64,000 bases of DNA, taken from the NCBI GenBank assembly GCA_029210775.1, contig JARGGI010000002.1:76478-140477 (forward strand), given 5' to 3'. Positions 1 through 17,321 of the stretch are shown here, piece after piece (position 1 is the first letter of the stretch; every line of letters starts with the position of its first letter). The position numbers and the translations under genes were made by a program. The stretch is from Patescibacteria group bacterium (GTDB lineage: Bacteria; Patescibacteriota; Minisyncoccia; JAHIHE01; JAGLIN01). The notes beneath the pieces were generated by a model. It was not told the origin of the DNA, ran no database searches, and saw only the letters and a list, made by a program, of their open reading frames with translations.

Positions 1-978
1 ACTTTTTTCTTGTTCTCTTCCAGTTTTTGCACTTTATTAAGTTTATCTAACATTTTAATACGGCTTTGCACAGCGCTGGCTTTAGTTGCTTTATATCTAA
101 AACGTTCAATGAATTCATTTTGTTTTCCTAAATATTTTTCCTGTCGTTTATATTCTTCTGACTTCCTTTGTTCCCGTTCACTTCTCTCTTCAAGATATGA
201 AGAATAATTGCAGAAATATTTTTCAAGTCCTCCTCGTTGCAGTTCGAATGTTTTATTACAAATCAAATCAAGAAATCTCTTGTCATGAGAAATAGCAAGA
301 ATTGCTCCATTCCAATTTAACAAAAACTTTTCTAACCAATCAATTGTATCCAAATCTAGGTGGTTTGTTGGTTCATCTAATATTAAAATATTTGGTTTTT
401 GTAAAACAATTTTAGCAAGAGCTAATCTAGTTTTTTCTCCTCCAGAAAGAGAGCTCACTTTTCGCTTCCACTCACTTTCAGGAAAGTTAAATTTTCCCAA
501 TACTTCTTCTGCATATTCTTCATATTCATATCCTCTTCTATTTTCAAAGTCATGCACGACTTCACCATATTCGTTGATTCTTTCATCTATATCCGAACTC
601 TTTGTATCTGACATTAAATTTTCTAGCTCCCTCTTGCGAACAATCGACTTATAAATTTTTTCATCAGCAGAAATCATTTCTTCTGAGATTGTATTATCTA
701 ATGAGTTCCAATGTGTTTCTTGAGGCAAATAACCAATAATAAGATTCTTATTATTTTGAACATCTCCGCTCTCAATTTCTTCCTGCTTCATAATAATTTT
801 TACCAGAGTGCTTTTTCCCATTCCGTTCGCACCAACAATAGCAATCCGGTCAGTGCTATTCACCACCAAATCAATTCCAGAAAAAAGCAATTCCGTTCCA
901 AATTTTTTTGAAACCTTGCTCAAAATTACCAGAGAACCCTCAATTGGTTTGCTTTTCATTATAATATTATTTTTTAAC
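1..978 (-). CDS. ABC-F family ATPase (EttA/Uup-like), N-terminal part; 3' end lies beyond window start
   Basis: Minus-strand ORF not in the provided track because it runs off the window. ATG at 978 (rc). Translation MLKNNIIMKSKPIEGS... contains Walker A GANGMGKST, ABC signature LSGGEKTRLALAKI, Walker B ILILDEPTNHLD, and an inter-domain linker rich in E/R/K typical of ABC-F proteins. Confidence 0.75.
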
Positions 979-1091
979 ATATATTTGAATTTATTAATTC
1001 TAACTTATTTTATAAAATACTAAGCACTATTATCATTGCAAGTAATCCTGCAGGACGAAGTAACAATCCCAAAATTAAGTTCCTTACGCGT

Positions 1092-1137
1092 AGTCATGAG
1101 ATTGCTTCGTTCGTTGCAATTCCCTCGCAATGACACC
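1092..1137. repeat. GC-rich palindromic MITE-like unit (family A: GATTGCTTCG...CTCGCAATGACA)
   Basis: agtcatgagattgcttcgttcgttgcaattccctcgcaatgacacc. Same core as units at 30441-30480, 41133-41164 and 51207-51238. Intergenic, GC-rich island in AT-rich DNA. Confidence 0.6.
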
Positions 1138-1408
1138 ATTTTTCAAATCAAAAAACCTGCTAAACAGAATATTGTTTTATTGTTATTTCGCTAATATTTT
1201 ACAAATGATTTGCGAAATAAATGCAATAAAAAAACAATCCACTTATCTTACAGGCTTTACTTCAAACATAACAACACAGCCAAAAATTCGACTTGTGTAG
1301 ATATTATTTGATTTTAGGGAAAAATTGTTCATACATTTACTTAAAGTATTCATAGTTTATCATTTTTTTTATAAATGTCAAACTATTCACAATAATTTTA
1401 CATTTTTT

Positions 1409-3301
1409 CTATTCCACCACTTGCAAGTCCCAAAACTTTTTATATAATCCTTTTTTCTTTTTAATCAATTTTTGGTGATTGCCTTCCTCGATGATCTCTC
1501 CGCCATCAATCACATAAATCTGGTCAGCTTTGCGGGCGGTGGTCATTCTGTGAGTAATTATTATAATTGTTTTTTCTTTTTTTAATTTTTTTAAAATATC
1601 CACAATCTTTGCCTCATGCTCAGCATCAAGCTGATTTGTTCCTTCATCAAAAATGATAATCGATCGATTTTGAATCAAAACCCTTGCAATTGAAAGAAGT
1701 TGTAATTGTCCACCTGAAAACTGCACATCATCTCCAATAATTGCATCAAGCTTTTTGGGTAATTTTTCAATTTCATTTTTTAAATCTAAAACTTCAAAAA
1801 TTTTCCAAATTTTTTCATCTATATCTTTTTCAAATTCACCGAAAGAAATATTTTCACGAATAGAAAAACTTTCCAACATAAATGGTTCTTGCGGAATTAT
1901 GCTTATATATTTTTTTACATATTTTGGCTCAATGTTTATCAACTTATTATTTCCAATCAGAATGTTTCCTCTTTTTGGATCATAATTTCTCGTTATCAAA
2001 TTTACCAATGTTGTCTTACCACTTCCATTTCTACCAACTATCGCCGTAATTTCTCCTTTTTTAAATTTAATACCAATCTTCTTTAAAACTATTGGCATTT
2101 TTCCACCTTTCTTTGAAAGAATTTGCTTCCACTCAGACAAATCTCCAAACTCCCAGACAAATGAAGATTTTTTCTGAAGATTTTCTTCTTTCCTGACGAT
2201 ACTTTTTATATACTCACGCTCTTCTTTATAAAAATTAGGATAACTAAAATCAATATTTTCAAATAAAATATCACCATATACTGGATAATTTATATTTTTG
2301 ATTTTATCCAATTTTAGCCTTGGCTTCAAATTCATGAAAAATTCTAGTTTATGAAACTTAATTAAGATGCTATTTAAATCAGGAATGACTGAAGAAATAT
2401 CTCGAAATACTCCTTGTAAAAGTGAGATATATAAAATCAGCATTATAAAACTACCAATAGTTATATTTCCATTTGTAACCTGAAAACCTGCAAAAAGAGC
2501 TGTGAATATATAGGCAAAATTTTGAGCCAATGACTCTAATATTGAATATTTTCCATATATTTCCTCTTCCTTTTTCTCAAGATTATACCTGGTTTCTCGA
2601 AGTCCCCAATATTTTTTCATTACAAAATTGTCACTATCTATGTTCGTAATATTCTGAAGTTCATAAAAAATTAAATTCTGTAATTCCCAAAATCGTGACA
2701 GCTTCCTTTCTTTGACAACATTTAACATAATATCTTTTTTTGTTCTACTGTTAATTATAATAATTTGAACCACACCTGAAAAAAGCAAAACAATAAATAT
2801 ACTTGGGCTGAAATAGGCAACAATTGGCAAAATTCCAAACACTGCAACCGTGATATTTATTTGACTAGAAGCAAAACTCAAAAGTCTTCCTACTAAATAT
2901 GTAACATCTATAGAACTGTTCACTATTCTTCTATTGCGTGGATTTTTCATAAATCCAGCATCAAATTTTTCAATACAATTATACAATTCTTTTTCAAGTT
3001 TTACTGAACAATTATAATCAATTTTTTTATTATATACACTCGAAATTGATGCAAATATTTTCTCTAACAAATTCACAATAACTGAAAGAAAAACTATCAA
3101 TACAAAAATAAATTCAGGACTAGAAGAAAAAACACCAAAGAAATCGCTATATTTATTTTCCAACTGATCAACTTGAAGCTTACTGAAATATGGAATCAGA
3201 AGCACGAGTCCTGATTGAATAACTCCAATAACCAAAAAAATCACAAAAAGAATTTTGTTTTGTGAGATTATTTTGGAGATAAGTTTATATTGTTGAGTCA
3301 T
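1409..3301 (-). CDS. ABC transporter, fused permease/ATP-binding protein (exporter type)
   Basis: 630 aa. N-terminal 6-TM domain. C-terminal Walker A GRNGSGKTTLVNL, signature FSGGQLQLLSIARVL, Walker B IIIFDEGTNQLD. Confidence 0.8.
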   Translation of the reverse strand: MTQQYKLISKIISQNKILFVIFLVIGVIQSGLVLLIPYFSKLQVDQLENKYSDFFGVFSSSPEFIFVLIVFLSVIVNLLEKIFASISSVYNKKIDYNCSVKLEKELYNCIEKFDAGFMKNPRNRRIVNSSIDVTYLVGRLLSFASSQINITVAVFGILPIVAYFSPSIFIVLLFSGVVQIIIINSRTKKDIMLNVVKERKLSRFWELQNLIFYELQNITNIDSDNFVMKKYWGLRETRYNLEKKEEEIYGKYSILESLAQNFAYIFTALFAGFQVTNGNITIGSFIMLILYISLLQGVFRDISSVIPDLNSILIKFHKLEFFMNLKPRLKLDKIKNINYPVYGDILFENIDFSYPNFYKEEREYIKSIVRKEENLQKKSSFVWEFGDLSEWKQILSKKGGKMPIVLKKIGIKFKKGEITAIVGRNGSGKTTLVNLITRNYDPKRGNILIGNNKLINIEPKYVKKYISIIPQEPFMLESFSIRENISFGEFEKDIDEKIWKIFEVLDLKNEIEKLPKKLDAIIGDDVQFSGGQLQLLSIARVLIQNRSIIIFDEGTNQLDAEHEAKIVDILKKLKKEKTIIIITHRMTTARKADQIYVIDGGEIIEEGNHQKLIKKKKGLYKKFWDLQVVE

Positions 3302-3329
3302 TAATAATTAATTTCATTTTTAAACTTTC

Positions 3330-3827
3330 CTATTCAACTTCCGCAACCAATGGATCTCTTCCTAAATCAATTTCTTCTTTGTCATTAAATCCATCATTAT
3401 CAGTGTCAGGATTTTCAGGATTAGTTCCTGCTTTTTTTTCATCAGCGTCTCCAAGTCCATCACTATCTAAATCAAGTTGTCCTGGTCCAAGTGGATCGTA
3501 ACCGCCTTCAACTTCTTGTCCATCAAAATAACCATCACCATCTGTGTCAGATTCAAGTGGATTTGTTTTCCAATTTCTAATTTCTATAAAATCAGTTAAT
3601 CCATCTCCATCTGTGTCAGCATTGTTTATATCAGTTCCAAATTCCTTTTCTTCACTATCAAGTAGGCCATCTTTGTCTGTATCAATATTTTTTACTTCTT
3701 CTTTTTTTTCTACTTTTGGAACAGCATTATCTTTTATATCTTCAATTTTCTTAATTGAACAACCCGAAAAAGAAAAAACTACCAACAACAAAAATGATAA
3801 TATCGCAATTTTTTTATAATTTTTCAT
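3330..3827 (-). CDS. lipoprotein with thrombospondin type-3-like Ca-binding repeats
   Basis: Signal peptide plus lipobox (LLVVFSFSGCS). Repeated DTDGDG / DxDxDGxxD motifs (DTDKDGLLDSEE, DTDGDGLTDF, DTDGDGYFDGQE, DSDGLGDADE, DTDNDGFNDKEE) and a GYDPLGPG segment. Confidence 0.6.
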   Translation of the reverse strand: MKNYKKIAILSFLLLVVFSFSGCSIKKIEDIKDNAVPKVEKKEEVKNIDTDKDGLLDSEEKEFGTDINNADTDGDGLTDFIEIRNWKTNPLESDTDGDGYFDGQEVEGGYDPLGPGQLDLDSDGLGDADEKKAGTNPENPDTDNDGFNDKEEIDLGRDPLVAEVE

Positions 3828-3875
3828 GTTTTTAATTAATCAATTATTATCTTATTATATCACAAAAACTTAAAT

Positions 3876-4871
3876 CTAATTATCCTCAAAATGCTTCATC
3901 CAATCTTTTTTGTAATTTATATTAAACTGTTTATAAAACTTCACTTCACTCACCTGCGCACACCATTCGTCACCGAACATAAAAATTGATCTTTTGATAT
4001 CAGAAAAGTATTGATAATTCGTTAAAGGATTACATTTTGTGCTTAACAAAGCGTAGTTTAGTGAATTTATAAGAAATCCTCCGTCATGCCTAAAATTTTT
4101 CAAATGCTCTGATTCATGGACTAAAAGAGATGCAAAATAAATTTTATCCTCAAGAGAATCAAAAGGTTTAGAAAAAACTGGATCAATTTCAATATAATCT
4201 TCTGGCATATGCGCCATCGCAAGAACGGGCTTCATACTTCTTTGAGAGAAATAGAATTGATTTGTATTGTTTACAATTTTTTCATATGCCTTTGGATCAA
4301 CGATTCGAAGAAAATGAAGTGTTTCTGAAATATTTTCCATTCCCTGAGATGATCCTTGTGTGCCTTGTATAATTTTTTCCGCTTTAATATCAATTTTTTT
4401 CTCATTACTATAGTCTAAAATTTTCTGATGCGTAAAAACATCAATAAAACTGTTAAGCAATGTAAAAATTATAATTATGTTTATTGTAAAAAATATTATA
4501 AATGCCTTTTGAAAATCTCGCTCTCCTTGGATTATAAATTCAAGAAAATTAATTTCTTTTTCAATTATTTTTTGCCTTCTTTCAAAAGTTAATTTATTTT
4601 TTTTTGATAGATAATAAATAAAAAAACGAATTGGCAAATATATCAAAACGAAACTTAGTGCAAAAACTCCAACTATACTTGGAAAAAGTCCGAAATCAAA
4701 AATGAAAGAAAGTAAAAATGAAGAAAATTTATAAAACACTATTGTAAAAAAAAACACGAAAAAATAAATAAAGAGTTCAAAAATAAACTCCCTGAAATTT
4801 TCTTTTTTAAGTTTCAAAATTTTTTGCCAAATTATTGCAAAAATAAAAATGAGTATTAAATCACCGATCAT
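3876..4871 (-). CDS. polytopic membrane protein with HEXXH motif (putative novel Zn-metallopeptidase)
   Basis: 331 aa. Several N-terminal TM helices. C-terminal soluble region with LLVHESEHLKNFRHDGG (HExxH). No recognisable family beyond the motif. Confidence 0.4.
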   Translation of the reverse strand: MIGDLILIFIFAIIWQKILKLKKENFREFIFELFIYFFVFFFTIVFYKFSSFLLSFIFDFGLFPSIVGVFALSFVLIYLPIRFFIYYLSKKNKLTFERRQKIIEKEINFLEFIIQGERDFQKAFIIFFTINIIIIFTLLNSFIDVFTHQKILDYSNEKKIDIKAEKIIQGTQGSSQGMENISETLHFLRIVDPKAYEKIVNNTNQFYFSQRSMKPVLAMAHMPEDYIEIDPVFSKPFDSLEDKIYFASLLVHESEHLKNFRHDGGFLINSLNYALLSTKCNPLTNYQYFSDIKRSIFMFGDEWCAQVSEVKFYKQFNINYKKDWMKHFEDN

Positions 4872-4873
4872 AT

Positions 4874-5827
4874 TTATTCTTCATTAAAAATTTCATTATA
4901 ATTTTCTTCATCAACTATTTTTATTTCATTTTTCAAATTAATATAATTTCCTGATGGATATTTATCTCCTAGAGATTTTGAAAGAGGATTATAGCCATTT
5001 TTTATTTCATCAAAATCAGTATATCCATCAAAATCAGTATCGGGGTTATTTTTATCTGTATTTATCGTCATTTCTACAAGATCAGACAAGCCATCATTGT
5101 CACTGTCTTCCTTTCTGAGCTTTATCTCAGTCGCTTCTTCAACTATATTAGAAGTCTTATTGTTACTCTCTGTGACTAAACTGGATTCATCTTTTTTTTC
5201 AACAACATAATCGGTACAATTAGCCGTCTGTAGAAATTCCAATGCCCTTTGATTATCATATTTCCTAGGACTATTTACGATTAAAAAAACGATTGAGCCA
5301 TCGACCTCTCCACATCTTAAAGTTCCAACCAACCCCTCTACCTTTTTCTCTAAAAGTTTATACGACTCTGTTTCAATCATAGAATAATAAGCCTCTTGGT
5401 TTCCAAGAATAATTGTCTCAAAACTTTTCTCATTATAATTATCATCAATATATCTTTCAAGAAAATCATAATCTAAATTTTCACCTGTTGTAGATCCATA
5501 ATTTTTTATCATATATTTACTTTCAAATCCCGTTGGCATATGCAAAATTGAAATATCGTTGCCACTTTTTTCATCTTTGATTTCAACCGTTTCAAGTGTT
5601 ATACCATATATAATTTCTTTAGTTGCCTTCTTCAGGTTATAGTCACTATCTGGAAATTCCCAATTGCCAATTTTTTGAGCGTCCTCAAGAGATATTGTTT
5701 TTTCTGCTTGGATAGCTATTAGAAAAACAGAACTTCCAAATAAAACAACAAACAAGAATGAACCAACTATTACTATTTTATTAATTATCTTTTGATTGCT
5801 ATTTTGTATTTCTTTAAATTGATCCAT
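4874..5827 (-). CDS. secreted/anchored protein with C-terminal TSP3-like module
   Basis: 317 aa. N-terminal signal-anchor (IVIVGSFLFVVLFGSSVFLIAI). C-terminus DSDNDGLSDLVE...NPDTDFDGYTDFDEIKNGYNPLSKSLG shares the module found in 3330..3827 and 8599..9405. Confidence 0.5.
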   Translation of the reverse strand: MDQFKEIQNSNQKIINKIVIVGSFLFVVLFGSSVFLIAIQAEKTISLEDAQKIGNWEFPDSDYNLKKATKEIIYGITLETVEIKDEKSGNDISILHMPTGFESKYMIKNYGSTTGENLDYDFLERYIDDNYNEKSFETIILGNQEAYYSMIETESYKLLEKKVEGLVGTLRCGEVDGSIVFLIVNSPRKYDNQRALEFLQTANCTDYVVEKKDESSLVTESNNKTSNIVEEATEIKLRKEDSDNDGLSDLVEMTINTDKNNPDTDFDGYTDFDEIKNGYNPLSKSLGDKYPSGNYINLKNEIKIVDEENYNEIFNEE

Positions 5828-5846
5828 ATCTTTATTGCTGAAGAAA

Positions 5847-7439
5847 TTAAATACCTAAAAATATAAGAACTACACCTACTATAATAGCCCACAATTTTGG
5901 ATGACTTTTTATTTTTTTGTTCTCAAGTTCCAAATAACTCAAAGAAACTTTTTGTCCGATTCCTCTAAAAAACCATCCCTGGGCAATTACTTGCTGACCA
6001 ATCAATTTGTTAATTTTTGTCAGTGCGAAAAAGAAATCACCAAGTTTTCCAAGCTTTGAATTATAATCTAAAAAAACCAAACCGCCGTTATCCTGAAACA
6101 TTAAGTCTTCGCTCAAAGCTGCACCTGCTTGTCCCCTTCCAATTATTTTTCCATCAAGCAAAATTCTTTTCCCTCTAATAGGAGAATTATAGATATCAGC
6201 CATCTGCTCTCTAATTGTTGTTTTCTCGGCGATGTTATTTGGAAACATATATAACGCTTTAATTATAAATGCCAAACCTAAAAATATGAACAGAATCTTC
6301 ATAGATCCTCCTGTTAATAATACTGCAGATAATCCAAACAAGATTGCAAAATGAGGAAGAAAAAACACGAAAACCCCTAATAAAAATCCATGATACAATT
6401 TTTCTTTATCTATCGTCATATTATTTATAGCTGCTCTGATGTTAAACATATTTTCCTTTCCAATAGATTTAGCAACTTCTCCAAGTCTTTCAATTCTCTT
6501 TCCGGTCAACGGATGAGTTGATCCTAACTCCAAAACAAATGCCCATGGACTCACAAAATCAAACGCCATAGTCTTGTTAATTGTCTCATTTGTGTCGGAC
6601 GACTTTAATGCCAAACCAAGTCCTTTGGCAGATTTTACATCCAAAATTCCCAGAGCTCTTGTGCTTTCCATGAGTCTTCCAGACTTTTTGTCATCTTCCT
6701 TTGCAACTATACCATAGGCAATTTTGATTAACGCAGTTGAAAGTTTATTTGGATCGCTAATATTTTTTGCTGCAAATTCATCAGCATAATATTCTCTAAC
6801 TCGAGATAAATATAAAATCACATAACTTCCAATGAAATAAAAAACATAGGATAGTAATCCGATATACACAAGCACTTGACCTTTTTTGTTCCTTCTTATT
6901 TGTTTTGATTTTGTAAAAATTACATACAATTCATATAAAATTTGCAAAAGAGTGCTTGCAATTGTCATAATTACAAAATCATAGTGGACAATATGACCAA
7001 TTTCATGAGCCAGTACCGCTTCCACTTCATCTTTTTCAAGATATGTAAAAAGACCCTTTGTAAAAACAAGTCTTGCATTTGATGGCAGTGAACCATATGT
7101 AAAAGCAGTAGGATTGTCATCATCAATAATTCCGATTTTTTTGGGAGATTTAACATTATTTTTTTGACAAATCGTTTTCAAAAAACTCGCCGTTTCTGGA
7201 TAAAGAGAATGTATATCTTCAATGGAATAAAATTTGATCTTATAAAAAAATCTCATCATAAAATCAGTAATCATCGGACCGATAATCCACATCAAGAAAT
7301 TAAAAACAATTGTCGCACCAATTAAAAAAGGAGCATTAATACTGCCCAATAAATAAGCTGCCGAAGCTAAAATTGTAAAAACGAATCCAGAGAGAATACC
7401 AAGTGTGACCAAACTTGCAAATTTTAGATTTTTAATCAT
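5847..7439 (-). CDS. M48 family (HtpX/Ste24-like) Zn-metalloprotease with ~210-aa C-terminal membrane/soluble extension
   Basis: HEXXH in VLAHEIGHIVHYDF, third-ligand motif REYYADEFAAK, and THPLTGKRIERL. It then continues with extra TM helices, a ~120-aa soluble segment and a terminal TM helix. Confidence 0.7.
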   Translation of the reverse strand: MIKNLKFASLVTLGILSGFVFTILASAAYLLGSINAPFLIGATIVFNFLMWIIGPMITDFMMRFFYKIKFYSIEDIHSLYPETASFLKTICQKNNVKSPKKIGIIDDDNPTAFTYGSLPSNARLVFTKGLFTYLEKDEVEAVLAHEIGHIVHYDFVIMTIASTLLQILYELYVIFTKSKQIRRNKKGQVLVYIGLLSYVFYFIGSYVILYLSRVREYYADEFAAKNISDPNKLSTALIKIAYGIVAKEDDKKSGRLMESTRALGILDVKSAKGLGLALKSSDTNETINKTMAFDFVSPWAFVLELGSTHPLTGKRIERLGEVAKSIGKENMFNIRAAINNMTIDKEKLYHGFLLGVFVFFLPHFAILFGLSAVLLTGGSMKILFIFLGLAFIIKALYMFPNNIAEKTTIREQMADIYNSPIRGKRILLDGKIIGRGQAGAALSEDLMFQDNGGLVFLDYNSKLGKLGDFFFALTKINKLIGQQVIAQGWFFRGIGQKVSLSYLELENKKIKSHPKLWAIIVGVVLIFLGI

Positions 7440-7466
7440 GGGTTTTGATTAGTTTTTAGTGAATCT

Positions 7467-7496
7467 CCCTGTGGCTCCGAGGCGGAGACCACAGGG
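7467..7496 (-). promoter_or_regulatory. GC-rich 13-bp-stem hairpin between the two M48 genes (terminator or leader element)
   Basis: ccctgtgg-ctccg-agg-cggag-a-ccacaggg. A nearly perfect extended stem in a 240-nt unusually GC-rich spacer, about 25 nt upstream of the ATG of 5847..7439. No U-tract follows. Confidence 0.4.
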
Positions 7497-7678
7497 CGTC
7501 AAGTTGTAATTCAAAGCTCGAAGAGTTTTAACTGCTTGGCGTCTTCTTTTCTGCCTTGCTTCTCTATGTATTTCTCAATGACTGCTTTGTTGCCTCTGCC
7601 ACTTACTGTCTTAAATTAAAAAACATATATCAGCTAAATATGTATTATTTTTTTATATTTTAATAATCATTATAAAAT

Positions 7679-8569
7679 TTATCTTTTAGTTTCCATCCCC
7701 ATTAGAGCACTTATCCTTTCTTCCATCGGTGGATGAGTCATAAACATTTTATTTACTTTCTTTCCTTTAAATGGATTGGCAATGTAAAGATGAGCGGTAG
7801 CGCGGTTGGCGACTTCTAATTTTTCCGAGTCTCCGGAAATTTTTTGAAGGGCACTTGCAAGTCCATCTGGATAACGAGTTAAAAGCGCGCCGTCAGCGTC
7901 GGCTAAAAATTCTCTTTTGCGAGAAATCGCCAGCTGGATTAGCATCGCAAAAAGAGGGGCTAAAATGGAAAGTAAAATCGCGACAATTACTATCCAACCT
8001 CCCCCTCCTTTATTATCTCTATTTCCTCCTCCAAACCACAGAGAATGCCTGAAAAAGTCAGCCAAAAGCGCAACCATTCCAACCAAAACAACAACCACAG
8101 TCGCCAGTAAAATATCCCGGTTTCCAATATGCGAAAGCTCGTGAGCGATAACTCCTTCCAATTCACTGCGATCCAATTTTTGCAGAAGTCCACTCGTCAC
8201 TGCCACCACGGCATGCTCCGGATCTCTTCCTGTGGCAAAAGCGTTCGGCGCGGTGTCATCTATAATATAAATTTTAGGAAGCGGAAGTCCTGCTGTGATA
8301 CACAAATTTTCCACAAGACGATAAAGTTCTTTATTGTCATTAAATTCAACGAGCTTTGCCTTGCTCATCGCAAGAACCAATTTATCAGAATACCAATAGC
8401 TTCCAACACTCATCAAAATACTAAAAAATACAGCGAACCATAAAATCGTGCTTGACCCCATCGCCTGAGAAAAAACCCAGCCTACTGTAATTACAAAGAC
8501 TAAAAACACTGACATTAAAATGTAAGTATTGCGAGTATTTCTGTCTGATTGGGTGTATAAAGTTGGCAT
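7679..8569 (-). CDS. htpX: protease HtpX (M48 peptidase)
   Basis: 296 aa. Two N-terminal TM helices, HEXXH (VIAHELSHIGNRD), EFLADADGA, C-terminal MTHPPMEERISAL. Canonical HtpX layout. Confidence 0.85.
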   Translation of the reverse strand: MPTLYTQSDRNTRNTYILMSVFLVFVITVGWVFSQAMGSSTILWFAVFFSILMSVGSYWYSDKLVLAMSKAKLVEFNDNKELYRLVENLCITAGLPLPKIYIIDDTAPNAFATGRDPEHAVVAVTSGLLQKLDRSELEGVIAHELSHIGNRDILLATVVVVLVGMVALLADFFRHSLWFGGGNRDNKGGGGWIVIVAILLSILAPLFAMLIQLAISRKREFLADADGALLTRYPDGLASALQKISGDSEKLEVANRATAHLYIANPFKGKKVNKMFMTHPPMEERISALMGMETKR

Positions 8570-8598
8570 ACAAACTGAAATTAAAAATTAAATTATTA

Positions 8599-9405
8599 TT
8601 ATAACTTCCCTTCCCCAAGAGGATTATAACCATTTTTTACCTCATCACCATCTGAATATCCGTCTCCATCTGTATCTGTTTTATTTGGGTCTGTTTTATA
8701 TATGGATGTTTCTTCATAATCCGAGAGTCCATCATTGTCAGCATTCTGAGATTTATCAGTTATGTTATTATTACAAATTTGATTTAATTTTTCATCTATA
8801 ATGTTTTTGCATAATTCTCTATTTTGTCCTATGAATGCTGTTTCATAATAAATGATATCCTTGCAAGCTTGCTGAATATTTTCAGGTTTTAGATTTGAGC
8901 AATCATCAGGATTCCTATATACTAAAAAAATATTTTTCAAACAATTTGTAAAATCACTACCTTCTGAAAACTGACATTTTTCATTTCTCTTTGCTGCAAT
9001 TCTTTGTACGGTTGGATCTGCACATTCAATTATCATTTTTTGATCTCCAATTTCACCACAAACACTACTATCGCCTTTTATAAAGGCCACAGAAGAAACG
9101 CAATCACTGTGATCGCTTCTTCTTTTGCATAGATTGGAATAATTTGTATTATTTATTGCTGCCTCAAGATAGAATTCTAATTGCGAAGAAGTAAATTCCG
9201 GATGAATGTTTTTCAGCTCTTGTAAAATTTCATCAATATCTTCATTATAATCATCTTCTATCGTTAAATTTTTTTTATTTACTAATTTTTCATTTTCATT
9301 ATTTACCAAGCTATCTTTTTTAAAAATAAGCACAAAAACTAAGGCAGATAGTAAAATTAATACTATACATCCTAAAATTATAATTTTTCTTTTTTTGTTT
9401 AACAT
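8599..9405 (-). CDS. secreted Cys-rich protein with C-terminal TSP3-like module
   Basis: 268 aa. Signal-anchor. About 14 Cys in the mature part. C-terminus NADNDGLSDYEE...DTDGDGYSDGDEVKNGYNPLGEGKL. Confidence 0.5.
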   Translation of the reverse strand: MLNKKRKIIILGCIVLILLSALVFVLIFKKDSLVNNENEKLVNKKNLTIEDDYNEDIDEILQELKNIHPEFTSSQLEFYLEAAINNTNYSNLCKRRSDHSDCVSSVAFIKGDSSVCGEIGDQKMIIECADPTVQRIAAKRNEKCQFSEGSDFTNCLKNIFLVYRNPDDCSNLKPENIQQACKDIIYYETAFIGQNRELCKNIIDEKLNQICNNNITDKSQNADNDGLSDYEETSIYKTDPNKTDTDGDGYSDGDEVKNGYNPLGEGKL

Positions 9406-9414
9406 AAATTTAGA

Positions 9415-11379
9415 CTATTTCCAACATCTAAAAGTCGCAGTCGTGTGATTTGTTCTTAAATACCAATTTTGAAGATTAGCAGGATCCTGACCTAATCTAC
9501 AATTATATCCACCAACACCACCGCAAGGTCGCATTTCTTGAACAACTACATATGGTCCAGGCATTCCTATAGTATAACCCCTACCACAACAATTGCATCC
9601 ATCTTTTCCACAGCCAACAAGTTCACAACAAGCATATCCAGTTCTTGCGACACTTGTAGAATCACAAGCAGAAGAGGTTCCTCCAACTGGAGTTGGTGGC
9701 AAAGCAGTGCAAGCCTCCCAACCTGAACAACACTGATTACAGTTTTGTGTTCCAGCAACTGGAACCCCAGTACAATGCGCAGGCATTCCATCAAAAAATG
9801 TATCTTCACAATCTCTAATTCCAAAAGGAGCAGGAGCATTATAATCACAAACCTCCAATCCATTTACAATTCCGTCACCACAAAAAGTCGGGACTGTATT
9901 CAAATTACAATCAAATCTTGCCCAACTTCCATCTCCTAAAGGATCATTAAACCCAAAAAGAACCATGCCAGTATTAATAATAGTCCATGCAACAAAAACA
10001 ACAACAAATCCAAAGACAATTTTGTTCATATATTGTTTTGCAGATAGAAGCAAATTTGAATCTCCACCAGTTTTAACGTGAATAAATCCCGCAACAATAA
10101 TAGACAAAATTGTTATAAGAATAATCAATTCCATCAAAAAATTAATAACATTACTTGCTAAAACAACACTATGACAAATATTGCAAGACTCTGTCTCATT
10201 CCAAACAGTATCAAGATTATCAGTTATTCTTCCACAAGGAACCAATCCTCCTGAATTATCAAAAAGAGAAGTACAATCTAACGGATCGGGATTACATTTA
10301 CAATAAGAACAGCCTAATCCTCCACAAAAAGTAGCATCCGTTCCATCACATTGTTCATTACCATCATTTGCAGGACCACCCAGTCCAATATCATTTGGAA
10401 TTTGAGCAATATTATCACCACAATAAGTATTGCATGTGCAATCTGTATCACACCCATATCCCAAACATGCATTATTATCTATTCCATCACACTGTTCATT
10501 ACCGTCATTTGCAGGTCCGCCCGTTCCGGCATCATTAGGAGCTTGGATAACATCATCTCCACAAAAAGAAGGTGGAGCACACATCAATTCAATGTCGGGA
10601 TAATCCATATATTGGTTCCATTTTTGAGAAACAGACAAAAATCCGTTTGGATTATATAATTTTGTATTAGGTTCTGAAACTTCACAATCATCATATTCTG
10701 TGCAAGAAGCATCCACTTGAGTACATGTATTTCCAAAAATAGCTGCTGTCCAATTATAATAAGAAAGAATGGAAGGCAAGGGAGAAGGAGAAGAAGCACA
10801 AAGACAAGAATCTGAAACTCCCACAACACAAACATCACTAGAGGTTAATGGAAAAATATAAGAAGAGGTTCTTTGCCCATTCGTATCAGTTCTTATTTTG
10901 CATACACCAGATCCTCCACCAAGATCTATAGGTTCGAAATTTATTTCATAAGTTGTTCCCGCAACCAAAGACACAAAGCCATTTAGTACTAAAATATTAT
11001 TTCCAACAACACCACCTGCCCAATTATCAACTTCTAGGTCAATCGTATTTATAACCCAATTATTTGAACTAATATAAACATTAACTTTATTTCTTGAAGT
11101 AAAACAACTATTATCGCTTAGGTTGATATTAATTTTATTAATCAACATATCAGCTGCAGGAGTAAACTTAAAAAAAGATGTTACGGGATCTCCACTAGCA
11201 TCAAATCCAACTAGATCCAAGTTATTATCAGCTCCTCCATCTCCTTGTTGCATTAAATTATAATCAACACATTGAGCCGAAACATCATTAGTCGACAAAA
11301 CAAAAAAAGACACCAAAAAAACAAAAAGAAATGAAAATGAAATTCTTGTTATTTTTTTTGCAATATCTTTTGTGATCAT
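9415..11379 (-). CDS. large Cys-rich surface protein with tandem CGD..NDGNEQCDG repeats (Myxococcus-type Cys-rich repeat-like) and an internal 2-TM hairpin
   Basis: Track ORF is 9415..11463. The start was chosen at the Met that begins the signal peptide MITKDIAKKITRISFSFLFVFLVSFFVLSTNDVSA (ATG at 11379). Two tandem ~45-aa repeats (CGDDVIQAPNDAGTGGPANDGNEQCDGIDNNAC... and CGDNIAQIPNDIGLGGPANDGNEQCDGTDATFC...) and a third degenerate copy (FCGDGIVNGLEVCDY). Two hydrophobic helices (FLMELIILITILSIIVAGFIHV and IVFGFVVVFVAWTIINTGMVLFGF) are separated by a K-rich loop in the middle of the protein. Confidence 0.6.
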   Translation of the reverse strand: MITKDIAKKITRISFSFLFVFLVSFFVLSTNDVSAQCVDYNLMQQGDGGADNNLDLVGFDASGDPVTSFFKFTPAADMLINKININLSDNSCFTSRNKVNVYISSNNWVINTIDLEVDNWAGGVVGNNILVLNGFVSLVAGTTYEINFEPIDLGGGSGVCKIRTDTNGQRTSSYIFPLTSSDVCVVGVSDSCLCASSPSPLPSILSYYNWTAAIFGNTCTQVDASCTEYDDCEVSEPNTKLYNPNGFLSVSQKWNQYMDYPDIELMCAPPSFCGDDVIQAPNDAGTGGPANDGNEQCDGIDNNACLGYGCDTDCTCNTYCGDNIAQIPNDIGLGGPANDGNEQCDGTDATFCGGLGCSYCKCNPDPLDCTSLFDNSGGLVPCGRITDNLDTVWNETESCNICHSVVLASNVINFLMELIILITILSIIVAGFIHVKTGGDSNLLLSAKQYMNKIVFGFVVVFVAWTIINTGMVLFGFNDPLGDGSWARFDCNLNTVPTFCGDGIVNGLEVCDYNAPAPFGIRDCEDTFFDGMPAHCTGVPVAGTQNCNQCCSGWEACTALPPTPVGGTSSACDSTSVARTGYACCELVGCGKDGCNCCGRGYTIGMPGPYVVVQEMRPCGGVGGYNCRLGQDPANLQNWYLRTNHTTATFRCWK

Positions 11380-11555
11380 TTTTGTATTATAAATTTTATA
11401 TGACAGTTTTGCGCGCATAGTTACGGGATTGCCACGGTCATGTCTCCCTCTTAATAACAGCAATATGTCATATTTTACTAAACTCTAAAACTTTTTGGCA
11501 CTTCTTTTTCTTTCGGCAACGAAACGAAAGCGAAAAAGCTCCAAATTTATTCAAT

Positions 11556-12176
11556 TTACCCAACAAACTCCTTTACTTTTTTTCGCAATTCCTTTTTTAT
11601 CTTATCCCAATCCGCACTTTCAAGCATCAATGGCATTGGATCTTGCTCTGCGTCCTGAAAATAAATCAAGCTTTTCAGAATATGCAATTGACTGTATTTT
11701 ATCTCTTTGTATTTTTTATCAAAAAAAGATAAAATCTCTTTCAAAGAATATTTTTTAAGCAGAAAATATAAATCTATAAAATCCTTCTTGCTTCCTCTGC
11801 TTGAAATTGCGTCTATCTTCATGCAAGCAATATCTTGGGCACTTGCTAATTTTAAATTCTTGCCGTATTTGATTAAAGGAAACAGCATTTTATATTTATA
11901 TCCCAAAAAGCTGATTTTAACTCCGTTTATGCTTGCGTTTAAAGTTCTTTTTTCTTCGGAGTAAACTTTCAATTTCCCTATTTGCGTTAAAATGGTTTTT
12001 AATTCTTTCGTGAAAAAATCATTTTTTGAGAATAAATCAAGATCAATTGATTTTCTATGTCCCAATTGCAACGCCAAAGCAGTCCCGCCGGCCAAATAGA
12101 AATCTTTAATTATTTCTATTTTGTCTAACGATTCCAAAACGCACTTTGTTTTTGTATTGATGACTTTTTCGTACAT
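11556..12176 (-). CDS. nucleotidyltransferase, AbiEii/AbiGii toxin family-like (short form)
   Basis: 206 aa. N-terminal LAGGTALALQLGHRKSIDLDLF fits the Pol-beta NTase motif hG[GS]x9-13DhD and the GGTAL...RxSxDLDF pattern typical of AbiEii-family proteins. Confidence 0.55.
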   Translation of the reverse strand: MYEKVINTKTKCVLESLDKIEIIKDFYLAGGTALALQLGHRKSIDLDLFSKNDFFTKELKTILTQIGKLKVYSEEKRTLNASINGVKISFLGYKYKMLFPLIKYGKNLKLASAQDIACMKIDAISSRGSKKDFIDLYFLLKKYSLKEILSFFDKKYKEIKYSQLHILKSLIYFQDAEQDPMPLMLESADWDKIKKELRKKVKEFVG

Positions 12177-12415
12177 TTTTTATTAACTGACAAGTTAAAT
12201 ATAAGCTCCCAAAAATTAGCGTTTTTTTTATCGGGATAATTAATTTTCAAAGCCGCTTCTTTTATTTTTTCATACGGATAACGTTTCTTTAAAATATCAT
12301 AATCCTTCTTATCTCCAAACAACAAAACCCGCTTTATAATAAAATCAGCGTTCTCTTTATAGTCAAGATTTTCAAAATCAACATCCCAAAACAAATGTTT
12401 ATCTATTTTAGCCAT
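12125..12415 (-). CDS. small protein overlapping the AbiEii-like gene by 52 nt (putative cognate partner/antitoxin)
   Basis: 96 aa (MAKIDKHLFWDVDFENLDYKENADFIIKRVLLFGDKKDYDILKKRY...). The overlap implies translational coupling. The function call is inference from gene context. Confidence 0.35.
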   Translation of the reverse strand: MAKIDKHLFWDVDFENLDYKENADFIIKRVLLFGDKKDYDILKKRYPYEKIKEAALKINYPDKKNANFWELIFNLSVNKKCTKKSSIQKQSAFWNR

Positions 12416-12444
12416 ATTATAAATTATTTTATTTCAGACGCGTC

Positions 12445-13008
12445 CTAAAACTCCACTTTCAGAGTCTCTTTTTCTTTCGGCTCTTCAATCTCAAAAAATT
12501 CTCTTTTTTTAATATTTAAAATCCCAGCGACAATACTATCGGGAAAAACAAGAATCTTCGTGTTGAGATCGCGCACATTGCCATTGTAAAATCTTCTTGA
12601 CGCCTGAATTTTATTTTCCGTATCAGAAAGCTCTCTTTGCAGTTCAAGAAAATTCTCGTTGGCTTTTAACTGCGGATAATTCTCACTAACCGCGAACAAG
12701 CTTTTCAAAGCTCCAGAAAGCATATTTTCCGCTCCTGCTTTTGCCTCAGGATTTTGAGTATTCATTGCGTTTGCTCTTGCCTTTGTCACTTTTTCAAAAA
12801 GCTCTCTTTCATGAGTTGCATAACCTTTCACAGTATTGATGAGGTTTGGGATTAAGTCATATCTTCTTTTAAGCTGCACATCAATGTCGCTCCATGCTTC
12901 ATTTGTTCGAACTTGCAATCTAACAAGAGCGTTGTATATCATCACAAACCACAATACTACTGCCACAATGATGACCAAAAGCACGATTAAAATTAAATTT
13001 GTTTCCAT
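12445..13008 (-). CDS. lemA: LemA family protein
   Basis: N-terminal TM helix followed by MIYNALVRLQVRTNEAWSDIDVQLKRRYDLIPNLINTVKGYATHERELFEKVTKARA, the conserved LemA core. Confidence 0.8.
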   Translation of the reverse strand: METNLILIVLLVIIVAVVLWFVMIYNALVRLQVRTNEAWSDIDVQLKRRYDLIPNLINTVKGYATHERELFEKVTKARANAMNTQNPEAKAGAENMLSGALKSLFAVSENYPQLKANENFLELQRELSDTENKIQASRRFYNGNVRDLNTKILVFPDSIVAGILNIKKREFFEIEEPKEKETLKVEF

Positions 13009-13203
13009 ATGTTTTTCCTTTCTTTTTATTAATTAATTTTGATTATTCATAACTATTTAATAATATCCATTTTATAGAATAATATCATAAATTTATTATT
13101 TTATCAAAAAAAGTTATAAATATTAATCAAGGCCTTAAGAGACAGTTAGAATTATTAAGAGCCTCAGCAAGTTCTTTTTAATAGGACTTACAAATATAAT
13201 AAA

Positions 13204-13234
13204 AAAGACAGTCCTTATAAAAAGGACTGTCTTT
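13204..13234 (-). terminator. rho-independent terminator of groES-groEL
   Basis: aaagacagtcctt-ataaaa-aggactgtcttt inverted repeat directly downstream of the groEL stop. On the minus-strand RNA it is followed by UUUUUUAUUAUAUUU. Confidence 0.7.
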
Positions 13235-13257
13235 GGTTTAATGTTATAAATTAAAAA

Positions 13258-14943
<1,686 letters not shown>

Positions 14944-14950
14944 TTAATTA

Positions 14951-14985
14951 GATTGTCATTCTAAAACGAGTTCGGAATGACAATC
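14951..14985. repeat. minimal palindromic MITE-like unit in groES-groEL spacer
   Basis: gattgtcattc-taaaacgagttcg-gaatgacaatc: perfect 11-bp inverted termini TTGTCATTC/GAATGACAA, the same termini as the other dispersed elements. Confidence 0.6.
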
Positions 14986-15002
14986 TTATTTTTTGTTTAT
15001 TG

Positions 15003-15293
15003 TTATTCAACAACTGCCATTATATCTTCTTCAGAAACTACTAAATATTCTTTGTCATCAAGTTTAATCTCTGTTGGACTATATTTTGAAAATAATACAG
15101 TATCACCAACTTTTACATCAACCTTACTTCTACTTCCGTCTTTGTTGATTTTTCCTGAACCAACAGCAAGAACTTTTGCTTGCTCCGGTTTTTCTTTATC
15201 AACTGTATCAGGAATAATAATCCCGCTTTTGGTCACTTCTTCTTTTGAAGCAGCCTCTAAAATAATTTTATTTCCAAGAGGTCTTAGTTTCAT
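15003..15293 (-). CDS. groS: co-chaperonin GroES (Cpn10)
   Basis: 96 aa. MKLRPLGNKIILEAAS...AKVLAVGSGK...; lies immediately upstream of groEL. Confidence 0.95.
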   Translation of the reverse strand: MKLRPLGNKIILEAASKEEVTKSGIIIPDTVDKEKPEQAKVLAVGSGKINKDGSRSKVDVKVGDTVLFSKYSPTEIKLDDKEYLVVSEEDIMAVVE

Positions 15294-15364
15294 AAACTTA
15301 CCCTTTCTTTTTACTTGCGCCTTATGAATTGCATAACAAGTAAATTATTAAATTTATTAATTTA

Positions 15365-15391
15365 TTAGCACTCTGACTTATTGAGTGCTAA
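15365..15391 (-). promoter_or_regulatory. CIRCE element (HrcA operator) upstream of groES
   Basis: TTAGCACTC-tgacttatt-GAGTGCTAA. A perfect match to the CIRCE consensus TTAGCACTC-N9-GAGTGCTAA, 72 nt upstream of the groES ATG. Confidence 0.9.
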
Positions 15392-15395
15392 TAAT

Positions 15396-15423
15396 ATTAT
15401 ATTCGTTTAATAAAAAGTGTCAA
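15396..15423 (-). promoter_or_regulatory. sigma70-type promoter of groESL
   Basis: Minus strand reads TTGACA-(16 nt)-TATAAT (rc of tgtcaa at 15418-15423 and attata at 15396-15401). The predicted start falls inside CIRCE, the classic arrangement. Confidence 0.6.
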
Positions 15424-15470
15424 GAGAAAACTTTTAATAAAATACAAATATTTTTTCATATTAATTTGAA

Positions 15471-15502
15471 ATAAAAAAAGAGTGTAATAGAATTACTCTC
15501 TA
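15471..15502 (-). terminator. rho-independent terminator of the 15542..16612 gene
   Basis: Minus RNA: AGAGAGUAA-UUCUA-UUACACUCU followed by UUUUUUUAUUUC. Confidence 0.55.
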
Positions 15503-15541
15503 AATTTGATAGAACATTTTTGACGATACTATTATTCCTGA

Positions 15542-16612
15542 TTATACATTTAATCCCGAATCTTTTTGACTGGCAAATTCAAAAATTCCCAATTCTTTCA
15601 TTTTTTGATTAAACTCTGGAATGATGTGACTTTCATGCGAATCAGGATGAAATTCAAGCTGTTCGTTACTAATCGTGATTCGTCCACCCTTTTTCATATT
15701 AAGAGGATCTTTTTTTATTCTGTTTGTTTGAATTTCTGACATTTTCTTTTCAAAATAATCCCCCATTTTTCCAGATAAAGTAAATTCAAAAATTTTAGCA
15801 ATTAAAGAAAGCACCTTGCTTCTCTTGATGCTTCTCAATCCTTCAATTTCTGAAAATTCATAATTTTCAAGATATTTTTTCATCCACTCGTTTGCTTTTT
15901 GAAATTCTAAAAATAATTTTCTATCTTTATCACTATTATAAATGCTCAAAATGTGATAATAGAGCTGTGCTGTATAAAGACTTTCAAATGGAATTCGGAG
16001 AGACTTATCAGTAATATAATGATTCAGACATATCATATCTTCGGTTTTATTTTTATGTCTTCTAACTCTCAAGAGAGACGTTAAGAGAGTAAAAAATGTT
16101 CGAACAGTCCATATTTTCCCCTTTTTTGCAACAATCATCAAATCTACATCCGAATCTTTTCTGGGATTTCCAAGGGAAAAAGACCCACTTCCCATAACCA
16201 ACTTTGCAAATGGCACGATTTGCATAATCCAAAATATCTTCTTCGATTTTTTCCATTTACTATCCCAAATTTTTTTTCGATTTAATCTCTGCTCAACAAT
16301 TTCATCTCGTCCTTTTAAAAAATAAAACCCAAAGTTCTGATCTAAATTATTTTTTAGATATTCGCTGATATTCAATAATTCAATAACTTCTGAGAAAGAT
16401 TCACTTGTATAAGGAAGTGATAATGACCGTAACAATTTCGTATTTAAATTCATATGCATATTATTTTGGTATTGCTTCGACGATTTCTCCTTACAATGAC
16501 AATCCTTAATCAAATAAAAAAAAATCTCAAAGCTAGTGAGAGGATAATTCAAAATATCATAATAAACAACGGTCGCGAGGATTTGTTTTTCTAAGATTGT
16601 TGAAGTTGACAT
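15542..16612 (-). CDS. stand-alone Pol-beta-superfamily nucleotidyltransferase-domain protein (unknown function)
   Basis: 356 aa. Central LVMGSGSFSLGNPRKDSDVDLMIV fits GSx9-11[DS]DxDh. About 140-aa N-terminal and 190-aa C-terminal regions with no recognisable motifs. Monocistronic: own terminator, separated from groES by a promoter. Confidence 0.45.
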   Translation of the reverse strand: MSTSTILEKQILATVVYYDILNYPLTSFEIFFYLIKDCHCKEKSSKQYQNNMHMNLNTKLLRSLSLPYTSESFSEVIELLNISEYLKNNLDQNFGFYFLKGRDEIVEQRLNRKKIWDSKWKKSKKIFWIMQIVPFAKLVMGSGSFSLGNPRKDSDVDLMIVAKKGKIWTVRTFFTLLTSLLRVRRHKNKTEDMICLNHYITDKSLRIPFESLYTAQLYYHILSIYNSDKDRKLFLEFQKANEWMKKYLENYEFSEIEGLRSIKRSKVLSLIAKIFEFTLSGKMGDYFEKKMSEIQTNRIKKDPLNMKKGGRITISNEQLEFHPDSHESHIIPEFNQKMKELGIFEFASQKDSGLNV

Positions 16613-16757
16613 ATTTTTGATTATTTGATAGGATAAGCCGTTAATTTTTTGTAAAAATTTACAAGACAGACTGCTTTAAAAAAAGCAATTTGCAAATTAA
16701 AAATTTGACTAATAAACAAATGGAAGAACAAGGTAAATGCTCTAAATAACATTTGAA

Positions 16758-17030
16758 GTGATAGCTGGAATAATATTTATTCTTTTGGGAATAATAGGAA
16801 TAATTGTTCTTTTAAATGTAGCAATAGCGAGGGTCATATTTTTCGAAAAACTTAAAGGAAAAGAGTTTTATTATAGTATGGTTTTTCTATTTGTCCTAAT
16901 TTCAATATTTGGGACATGTCTTGTGATTGCCGAATTAACAGGAGGATTGCTAGAAGAAATGAGTGCGTTTGATAGAAGCTATATGCCACCAGAGGATTCA
17001 CCATCGATAATTAAAAATAATCAATATTGA
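16758..17030 (+). CDS. small 2-TM membrane protein (hypothetical)
   Basis: 90 aa with two hydrophobic helices. No motif recognised. Confidence 0.3.
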   Translation: MIAGIIFILLGIIGIIVLLNVAIARVIFFEKLKGKEFYYSMVFLFVLISIFGTCLVIAELTGGLLEEMSAFDRSYMPPEDSPSIIKNNQY

Positions 17031-17046
17031 AAACAACCTTTGCTAT

Positions 17047-17250
17047 ATGGCCACAACACCATATAATGATGTTAATTTAGTAGATCAACATTATTATAGG
17101 ATCCCAATTGAAAAAATTGAGGATTTTAACAGTATGAAAATTGGAACCATTGTCATTAACGACAATGGCGTTCTAAAGCCATTTAAACTTAATTATAGAA
17201 TTAATCCCTGCCCCTTTCATTTTTTTAAGGGGTTTATTTTTTTATTCTAA
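17047..17250 (+). CDS. small hypothetical protein
   Basis: 67-aa ORF. No motif. May be spurious. Confidence 0.2.
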   Translation: MATTPYNDVNLVDQHYYRIPIEKIEDFNSMKIGTIVINDNGVLKPFKLNYRINPCPFHFFKGFIFLF

Positions 17251-17321
17251 AATAATTCCCAAAACTAAATTCAGGATTTCCACGGACTAATCGCCCTCAC
17301 AATGACAAAATATAACAAAAT

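Follow-up and report, generated by a model that had tools for sequence, protein, structure and literature searches.

How is one to understand a dense run of three different HEXXH-motif proteins interleaved with secreted surface proteins in the chromosome of a Patescibacteria group bacterium? The question is raised by positions 3330-11379 on the minus strand of a 64,000-nucleotide stretch of contig JARGGI010000002.1 (assembly GCA_029210775.1), which is called the window below and for which an initial annotation had proposed a coordinated module of metalloproteases and adhesin-like proteins. The cluster is specific to its lineage and composed for the most part of known genes, with one new, rare zincin-like family among them. 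It does not overturn current understanding, and it amounts neither to a mobile island nor to one operon of fixed composition. The reading that we prefer, with a probability of roughly 45%, takes the block as a lineage-specific piece of the Paceibacteria core chromosome, in which a membrane-proteostasis backbone would be accompanied by fast-evolving surface genes and by an ecto-zincin acting on proteins with thrombospondin type 3 (TSP3) repeats. The genes on which this reading is built are listed here with the evidence for their assignment (scores in bits; lengths in amino acids, aa; TM, transmembrane).

1409..3301, minus strand: MsbA-like half-size ABC exporter, 630 aa (Pfam ABC_membrane and ABC_tran)
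3330..3827, minus strand: small TSP3-repeat protein, probable lipoprotein, 165 aa, 5 repeats (TSP3_bac, 77.7 bits)
3876..4871, minus strand: 4-TM HESEH protein with a C-terminal zincin-like domain (family without Pfam match, conserved HExxH...E)
4874..5827, minus strand: N-terminally anchored protein, 317 aa, with C-terminal TSP3 repeats (TSP3_bac, 30.1 bits)
5847..7439, minus strand: long M48 protease (M48-long), archaeal-type HtpX/M48 domain (residues 1-325) followed by 2 TM helices, an OB-fold and a further TM helix (residues ~326-530) (Peptidase_M48, 108.6 bits)
7440..7678, minus strand: intergenic gap of 239 bp with a GC-rich hairpin (sequence)
7679..8569, minus strand: HtpX-type M48 zinc metalloprotease, 296 aa (Peptidase_M48, 118.1 bits)
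8599..9405, minus strand: N-terminally anchored protein, 268 aa, with an 11-Cys spaced region and C-terminal TSP3 repeats (TSP3_bac, 50 bits)
9415..11379, minus strand: Cys-rich surface protein, 654 aa, with a hairpin resembling VirB2 pilins of type IV secretion systems (T4SS) (sequence and profile comparison)
11556..12415, minus strand: AbiEii and DUF6922 pair (Pfam AbiEii 64 bits, DUF6922 64 bits)
12445..13008, minus strand: LemA-family membrane protein (NCBIfam MamQ, a LemA-family model, 88 bits)
13258-14922: groEL, upstream of lemA
15003-15293: groES, upstream of groEL

The Pfam gathering cut-offs against which these scores are to be read are 20.3 bits for Peptidase_M48, 25 for TSP3_bac and 26.6 for T4SS_pilin. 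Between 3330 and 11379 seven minus-strand genes were found, with the boundaries first assigned to them, instead of the eight consecutive genes that had been announced; the 239-bp gap holds no credible open reading frame (ORF), and a hidden eighth gene was not found there. The three HEXXH proteins are distinct, as had been claimed, carrying HELSH (HtpX), HEIGH (M48-long) and HESEH (3876-4871), and the first two match Peptidase_M48 while the third has no similarity to M48. A motif census of all ORFs of at least 80 aa in the whole window detected only three HExxH-bearing ORFs, all inside the block, and three TSP3-motif ORFs, all within the same 8 kb; such clustering is not a chance scatter. Genes of the block are separated by 2-48 bp, with the sole exception of the 239-bp gap between HtpX and M48-long, because of which the block probably comprises two transcription units, one running from 11379 to 7679 and the other from 7439 to 3330 (or on to 1409). 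No intergenic terminator was detected inside the block by the automatic terminator scan; an AT-rich hairpin followed by a T-run just past the HtpX stop codon may be mentioned as a weak candidate found manually.

Comparison with loci fetched from other genomes, designated below by L numbers, defined which of these genes travel together. In related Paceibacteria the order groES-groEL-lemA-pilin-like-HtpX-M48/OB-TSP3 lipoprotein-ABC exporter is collinear. Its upstream end is formed by LemA, with 76-77% identical PF04011 orthologs in L003 and L007, and its conserved downstream end by the ABC exporter, a generic MsbA-like protein scoring below every NCBIfam cut-off, whose orthologs (54-66% identity) come after the TSP3 lipoprotein in L007 and L018. 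L007 is collinear from the gene upstream of groES to the ABC exporter, with identities to the window of 80% for HtpX, 55% for M48-long, 53% for the TSP3 lipoprotein and 54% for the exporter, and contains no HEXXH gene. L003, where the homolog of the HESEH protein is 57% identical, displays the order groES-groEL-lemA-pilin-like-TSP3c-like-HtpX-M48-long-TSP3b-like-HEXXH-unknown-third M48-TSP3 lipoprotein, and L001 (HEXXH 80%) keeps the pilin-like gene, HtpX, M48-long, HEXXH and the TSP3 lipoprotein in order with other interleaved genes (TPR plus TSP3, PD40 plus TSP3). HtpX, HEXXH and the TSP3 lipoprotein follow each other in L013 (HEXXH 76%), without M48-long between them; in L018 (62%) the sequence is HEXXH-polytopic protein-TSP3 lipoprotein-ABC exporter, and L015 (69%) has TSP3 and Cys-rich neighbours and no M48 gene within 10 kb. 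Neither M48 nor TSP3 genes are found near the homologs in L006/L016 and L023-L026 (60-62%), with Wzz, GT4 and Wzy neighbours in L006, or near that of L005 (37%). L008-L010, finally, contain distant homologs of M48-long among unrelated neighbours and no HEXXH gene, and no TSP3 ORF was seen in these three loci, nor elsewhere in the window. Synteny is accordingly kept in part: the order persists in several related genomes, the HEXXH gene lies elsewhere or is missing in others, and M48-long stands alone in distant genomes.

The backbone of LemA, HtpX and M48-long with its OB-fold beside GroES/GroEL is best read as serving membrane proteostasis, and along it lie variable surface genes, those for the anchored TSP3, Cys-rich and pilin-like proteins. 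The term island, applied to the block at the outset, does not hold in the sense of a mobile element: no tRNA is encoded in positions 1-20000 of the window, the GC fraction (0.25-0.40) makes no step at the block boundary, the rest of the window codes for UvrA, RNase J, FtsK, RpoB/RpoC, glycogen synthase and similar housekeeping products, and L003 and L007 share the order of the backbone genes. On these grounds a mobile genomic island was rejected.

The most unusual member of the block is the protein of 3876-4871, with its HESEH motif at residues 252-256. It has no match in Pfam or NCBIfam, no Pfam family recurs in scans of the individual members of its family, and searches of the family against PDB chains, both by sequence and by profile, returned no zincin. 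Membership in M48 was considered and rejected for lack of profile similarity, the hhalign probability between the two profiles being 1.5%. Its sequence is 100% identical to that of an NCBI protein recorded for a "Patescibacteria group bacterium", in line with a Paceibacteria-like metagenome-assembled genome, while an exact look-up in the contig index gave no entry. A word-indexed search yielded 40 close homologs, all from Patescibacteria, and a profile search of 1.84 billion cluster representatives gave 14 family hits at E <= 1e-3. Distant relatives are proteins of 210-277 aa, in which a single N-terminal TM helix precedes the same domain. Residues E253, H256, C280, E302, C304, A305 and F312 are invariant across the 4-TM and the single-TM (~24% identical) architectures, and H252 is present in all aligned sequences of the family but one. 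E302, located 46 residues after H256 in an "E-x-C-A" motif within a predicted helix, is a candidate third zinc ligand, while the conserved pair C280/C304 is a probable disulfide. The conservation of HExxH and a downstream Glu throughout the family looks like the pattern expected of an active gluzincin-type site.

The AlphaFold (AF2) model of this protein, with a mean predicted local distance difference test score (pLDDT) of 77 and ~90 for residues 160-260, contains three short strands (205-229), the HExxH helix (240-259) and further helices. When it was compared to the PDB with Foldseek, the 19 best hits were all zincin peptidases, with the best E value only 0.18 and none significant; they include selecase, Wss1, deuterolysin, jannalysin/abylysin, a Geobacter M48-like peptidase, PPEP, anthrax lethal factor and BlaR1. 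The list is led by minigluzincins, described as a minimal scaffold of M48/M56 catalytic domains (bioRxiv 10.1101/2020.07.07.192476). The HESEH domain is like minigluzincins (selecase, projannalysin, proabylysin), Wss1 and aspzincins in its small size and in its predicted three-strand sheet, HExxH helix and later helices with a conserved Glu, and it differs from minigluzincins in being tethered to four TM helices (one in distant relatives), predicted as extracytoplasmic and furnished with a Cys pair, at matches of E >= 0.18. The assumption made at first, that this unclassified protein is a metalloprotease, thus gains from the conserved HExxH...E and from the sheet-and-helix model, while the fold matches, all to zincins, stay insignificant. 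We regard the protein as representing a new, rare zincin-like family that is not M48 and is very probably catalytic.

Four TM helices emerge from hydropathy and charge bias, K/R-rich loops being located at residues 20-28 and 90-118, and owing to these loops the positive-inside rule places the HESEH domain outside, as predicted from sequence. Such a location agrees with the conserved Cys pair and with the N-termini of the single-TM relatives, which are rich in K/R. At the extreme N-terminus the residues MIGDL do not vary in the whole 4-TM family down to 35% identity, which is unusual for the start of a TM helix and suggests a functional N-terminal motif.

Which proteins keep company with the putative ecto-zincin? 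As first described, the block contains three secreted or anchored proteins with TSP3 repeats, all above the TSP3_bac cut-off and all with N-terminal anchors. Their repeats follow the motif DxDxDGxxDxxE, pointing to proteins of calcium-binding type, and together with the Cys-rich protein they are predicted to be anchored extracytoplasmic proteins. The product of 3330-3827, in which a hydrophobic N-terminal segment with an "LSFSGC" motif kept in orthologs precedes a strongly acidic ectodomain, is encoded by the most persistent neighbour of the HEXXH gene. The gene at 4874-5827 is a variable interleaved one, coding for a single N-terminal TM helix and an acidic ectodomain; its only ortholog was seen in L003, at 34% identity. 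In the same locus the protein of 8599-9405 has a 43% identical ortholog, and proteins of its kind, with TSP3 repeats and a Cys-spaced region, adjoin relatives of the HEXXH protein in L015 and L032. In L032 the ~24%-identical single-TM relative is directly preceded by an anchored protein with TSP3 repeats (46.8 bits) and with Cys spacing resembling the region in 8599-9405, and judged by these sequences it is an independent recurrence of the zincin-like/TSP3 pairing. In a regular-expression tally, 10 of ~19 distinct loci have a TSP3-motif ORF on the strand of the zincin-like gene and no farther than 2.4 kb from it, and 4 of ~19 have M48 within 1.2 kb of it, where many loci end early upstream; contexts of two distant relatives are uninformative, L011 being too short and L033 ending on the upstream side. 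With TSP3 proteins as its most persistent partner class, the ecto-zincin would most plausibly have exported TSP3 proteins as substrates or partners.

Similar repeats occur in exported anchored proteins of Myxococcus (CglD, MtsC/MtsD), which share DxDxDGxxDxxE with the TSP3 proteins of the window. The latter differ in their shortness (165-317 aa) and in scores far under the equivalog cut-offs; the likeness is limited to the repeats, and no gliding or cohesion machinery is present. A different environment was observed in L006 (9315-13347, ~62% clade), where the HEXXH gene lies between a Wzz-like gene and a gene for an anchored Cys-rich protein with a weak MXAN_0125-family hit; GT4 and two Wzy_C genes then follow, constituting a surface-polysaccharide rather than a protease context.

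The two M48 proteases belong to a better known world. HtpX (7679-8569) carries HELSH at residue 143, has four hydrophobic segments, and finds its best NCBIfam model in NF003425, matched over the full length with 334.5 bits against a cut-off of 355; residues H143, E144, H147, E220, A223 and D224, corresponding to HExxH and E..AD, are invariant in the M48 alignment. M48-long (5847-7439) carries HEIGH at residue 145, and its HExxH and E..AD columns are invariant as well; its best NCBIfam matches are HtpX models too, the top one with 119.6 bits against a cut-off of 341, and by its sequence it is a distinct M48 subfamily and not an HtpX equivalog. With E. coli HtpX and the HtpX of Firmicutes lemA-htpX loci both share the profile match, HExxH plus E..AD and four hydrophobic segments, and from them both differ by scores below the NCBIfam HtpX equivalog cut-offs, M48-long also by the addition of the 2-TM, OB-fold and TM part, which is missing in classical HtpX. 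A third M48/HtpX paralog, ~40% identical to HtpX, lies between HEXXH and the TSP3 lipoprotein in L003 (12202-13173) and L022 (1713-2648); the window does not have it.

The extension of M48-long, announced as ~210 aa, measures ~205 aa, the M48 domain ending near residue 321-325. It is strongly conserved, with invariant Gly, Trp and Asp residues, and in the confident AF2 model (pLDDT 87.6) two TM helices lead into a β-barrel, after which comes a last TM helix; the barrel matches the OB-folds of Stn1, the LysRS N-domain, CcmE and RPA, with E values from 6e-4. The full-length architecture was found in more than 1,681 proteins at E <= 1e-10 from genomes of the Candidate Phyla Radiation (CPR) and DPANN, and 90-100% of the query is covered by the best 120 matches; the sources are Patescibacteria and archaeal bins such as Aenigmarchaeota, and one homolog stands in a clearly archaeal gene context (L008). 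Being so widespread and conserved, the extension is a CPR/DPANN-wide OB-fold module and is not peculiar to this locus. The M48 + 2TM + OB-fold + TM arrangement (window 5847-6497) retains 45-47% identity between Patescibacteria and DPANN-type archaeal contigs (L008, L010; Aenigmarchaeota label), which suggests cross-domain sharing of the architecture among episymbiont lineages. Some homologs (L001 7876-9972; P0066, P0070-P0073 and P0079) reach 696-708 aa by a further C-terminal addition of ~170 aa.

Resemblance to BlaR1/MecR1 (M56) also deserves comment, these proteins being likewise polytopic with a gluzincin domain; both M48 proteases of the window give weak M56 hits, and BlaR1 is among the fold hits of the HESEH protein. 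Differences are that there is no penicillin-binding sensor and no BlaI-like repressor gene, that the M56 scores are far below the cut-off, and that the HESEH domain is C-terminal and predicted outside, whereas the domain of BlaR1/MecR1 resides in a cytoplasmic loop.

On the preferred reading, LemA, HtpX and M48-long, encoded downstream of groES-groEL, would make up a membrane-protein quality-control set, by which membrane-anchored proteins that are misassembled or in surplus would be removed from the membrane or its cytoplasmic face. Fast-evolving anchored surface proteins (those with the pilin-like hairpin and with TSP3 repeats), typical of these episymbionts, would be interspersed along this backbone, into which the HEXXH gene would be placed as an accessory gene in some genomes. 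By its predicted topology the ecto-zincin alone of the three proteases would be positioned to cut exported domains, and it would probably trim or shed anchored TSP3-type surface proteins. What the analysis shows is which genes are present, how their domains are arranged, how the families are distributed and where synteny is kept; catalysis, topology, substrates and functional coupling are inferred. Several facts weigh against this reading. The synteny comes mostly from fairly close relatives (GroEL 77-87% identical), in which order may persist by descent alone; the HEXXH-TSP3 link is missing in L005, L006/L016, L023-L026 and L029; the neighbours of M48-long are unrelated in L008-L010; one member of the HEXXH family has YExxH, with Tyr in place of the first His; and the cytoplasmic-face active site of HtpX is carried over from work on E. 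coli.

The main rival takes up the first of these points and explains the whole arrangement by descent: streamlined related genomes would retain their gene order, proteases and surface proteins being functionally unrelated and the HEXXH protein being one more lineage-specific membrane protein. We consider this possible, if on the whole unlikely. In its favour speak the confinement of the conserved order to relatives with that degree of GroEL identity and with HtpX orthologs at 79-93%, the interleaved genes that are different in every genome, the solitary M48-long of L008-L010, the HEXXH gene situated elsewhere in L005, L006 and L023-L026, and the 239-bp gap that divides the block. It fits poorly with L015, where the HEXXH gene keeps TSP3 neighbours after a rearrangement removing the M48 genes, with the TSP3 neighbour kept in the ~24%-identical relative of L032, with the recurrence of lemA-htpX adjacency in Firmicutes, and with the concentration of all TSP3 and HExxH ORFs of the window within 8 kb. 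Adjacency and co-regulation of lemA and htpX outside CPR are documented for S. pneumoniae SPD_1138/1139 (PMC8546594). Here, as in S. pneumoniae, LemA lies in the neighbourhood of HtpX, with the difference that surface-protein genes and the AbiE insertion separate the two; given that the adjacency is known elsewhere, the initial statement that the block is not a standard described operon is half true.

The coordinated attachment or surface-remodelling module proposed by the initial annotation, in which three metalloproteases would mature or remodel their secreted adhesin-like neighbours, now appears quite improbable. The tight packing on one strand, the arrangement kept in L001, L003 and L013 and the predicted anchored extracytoplasmic nature of all non-protease members are in agreement with it. 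Its composition, however, is not fixed, since the HEXXH gene is missing from L007 and the M48 genes from L015, and L005, L006 and L023-L026 have no M48 or TSP3 neighbour; M48-long is CPR/DPANN-wide and has other neighbours elsewhere; and Pfam scans of the block proteins identified no adhesin domain beyond the TSP3 repeats. HtpX-type active sites are described, in E. coli, as facing the cytoplasm, from where they could not reach ectodomains, which makes the M48 proteases poor candidates for maturing the ectodomains of their neighbours. Of the three, the HESEH protein alone is predicted to expose its domain outside.

The Cys-rich surface protein completing the block (9415-11379), recognized as such from the beginning, has ~44 Cys in its 654-aa ATG-start form and 45 Cys (6.6%) in the 682-aa TTG-start ORF. 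A signal peptide is followed by an acidic ectodomain of 365 aa (25 Cys), a two-TM hairpin and a C-terminal segment of 176 aa (19 Cys), and no Pfam or NCBIfam model matches above threshold. The N-terminal ectodomain is variable and includes two ~50-aa Cys-rich repeats (CGD...NDGNEQCDG...), whose assignment as Myxococcus-type Cys-rich repeats was dropped for want of a Pfam or NCBIfam match. Only the hairpin (residues ~376-494) is kept across related loci, L003 also keeping the C-terminal domain. VirB2-like pilins are widespread in CPR (bioRxiv 10.1101/2025.01.22.634366), and it could be supposed that the hairpin protein is a T4SS pilin-type subunit matured by the adjacent proteases by analogy with conjugative pilins. 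Consistent with this, the pilin-like gene always lies between lemA and htpX in related loci, VirB2-like pilins are important in CPR, the hairpin aligns over nearly the whole PF18895 model of the VirB2/TrbC CPR pilins (PF18895, PF04956), and compared to bona fide small PF18895/TrbC proteins of related contigs it reaches a probability of 96.1% in hhalign (E 3.2e-9, 66 columns), a value that TM composition may inflate between TM hairpins. Yet the T4SS_pilin score is 19.6 bits here and 18-23 bits in three orthologs, below the cut-off throughout; pilins measure ~100 aa, and the protein here has 654 aa, with large Cys-rich ectodomains on both sides of the hairpin; there is no pilin array, and neither VirB4 nor other T4SS genes are present among the large ORFs of the 64-kb window. 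Processing related to a pilus is on this account very improbable. That the HESEH protein is no enzyme but a zincin-derived pseudo-protease or metal-binding sensor or receptor domain on four TM helices, as its YExxH homolog, the insignificant fold hits and the lack of a significant match to any peptidase family might suggest, is the least credible of all, with the catalytic Glu, both His and the downstream Glu conserved family-wide, down to the ~24%-identity relatives.

Some features outside the protein products should be added. The 239-bp gap, with a fold z-score of -2.7, contains at 7467-7496 (minus strand) a hairpin with a GC-rich stem of 13 bp, CCCTGTGGTCTCCG-CCT-CGGAGCCACAGGG. The start codon of M48-long follows at a distance of ~28 nt, and the GC content of the genome is ~30%. 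The hairpin occurs as a single copy in the window and is not present in any fetched locus. The gap gives no Rfam match and shows no conservation with the corresponding gap of L003, and a known RNA element was rejected given these results and the uniqueness of the hairpin, which might be a regulatory structure of the 5′ untranslated region.

Upstream of the block the AbiEii nucleotidyltransferase toxin gene and the DUF6922 gene overlap by 52 nt; since L003 and L007 do not have this pair between lemA and the pilin-like gene, it is considered an insertion outside the backbone. Another AbiEii gene was observed near the HEXXH homolog of L005. A consensus promoter precedes groES, and a strong bidirectional terminator with a perfect 13-bp stem is situated after groEL at 13204-13234; weak sub-threshold Rfam hits to small RNAs (rhtB, MCS4) at this place most likely reflect the terminator hairpin itself. 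Upstream of groES an ORF of 356 aa (15542-16612) has no Pfam or NCBIfam match and occupies the same position in L007 and L015 (47-75% identity).

Patescibacteria spend their lives attached to other microbes and rely on the cell surface, and most of their envelope proteins are uncharacterised. To this field the locus contributes a very rare and unclassified family of zincin-like ectodomains, in which the catalytic signature is clear and a TSP3 partner recurs, a CPR/DPANN architecture of membrane protease, M48 with an OB-fold, annotated only as "M48/HtpX", and a VirB2-like hairpin by which a large Cys-rich surface protein is anchored here in the membrane. A further step, which we hold to be improbable, would be to see in the ecto-zincin family, in its 4-TM or 1-TM form, and the anchored TSP3 calcium-binding proteins a dedicated, undescribed processing pair of episymbiotic Patescibacteria, integrated at this locus with the LemA/HtpX/M48-OB set. 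If this were true, Ca-dependent shedding or maturation of attachment proteins would be an example of the role of such a pair.

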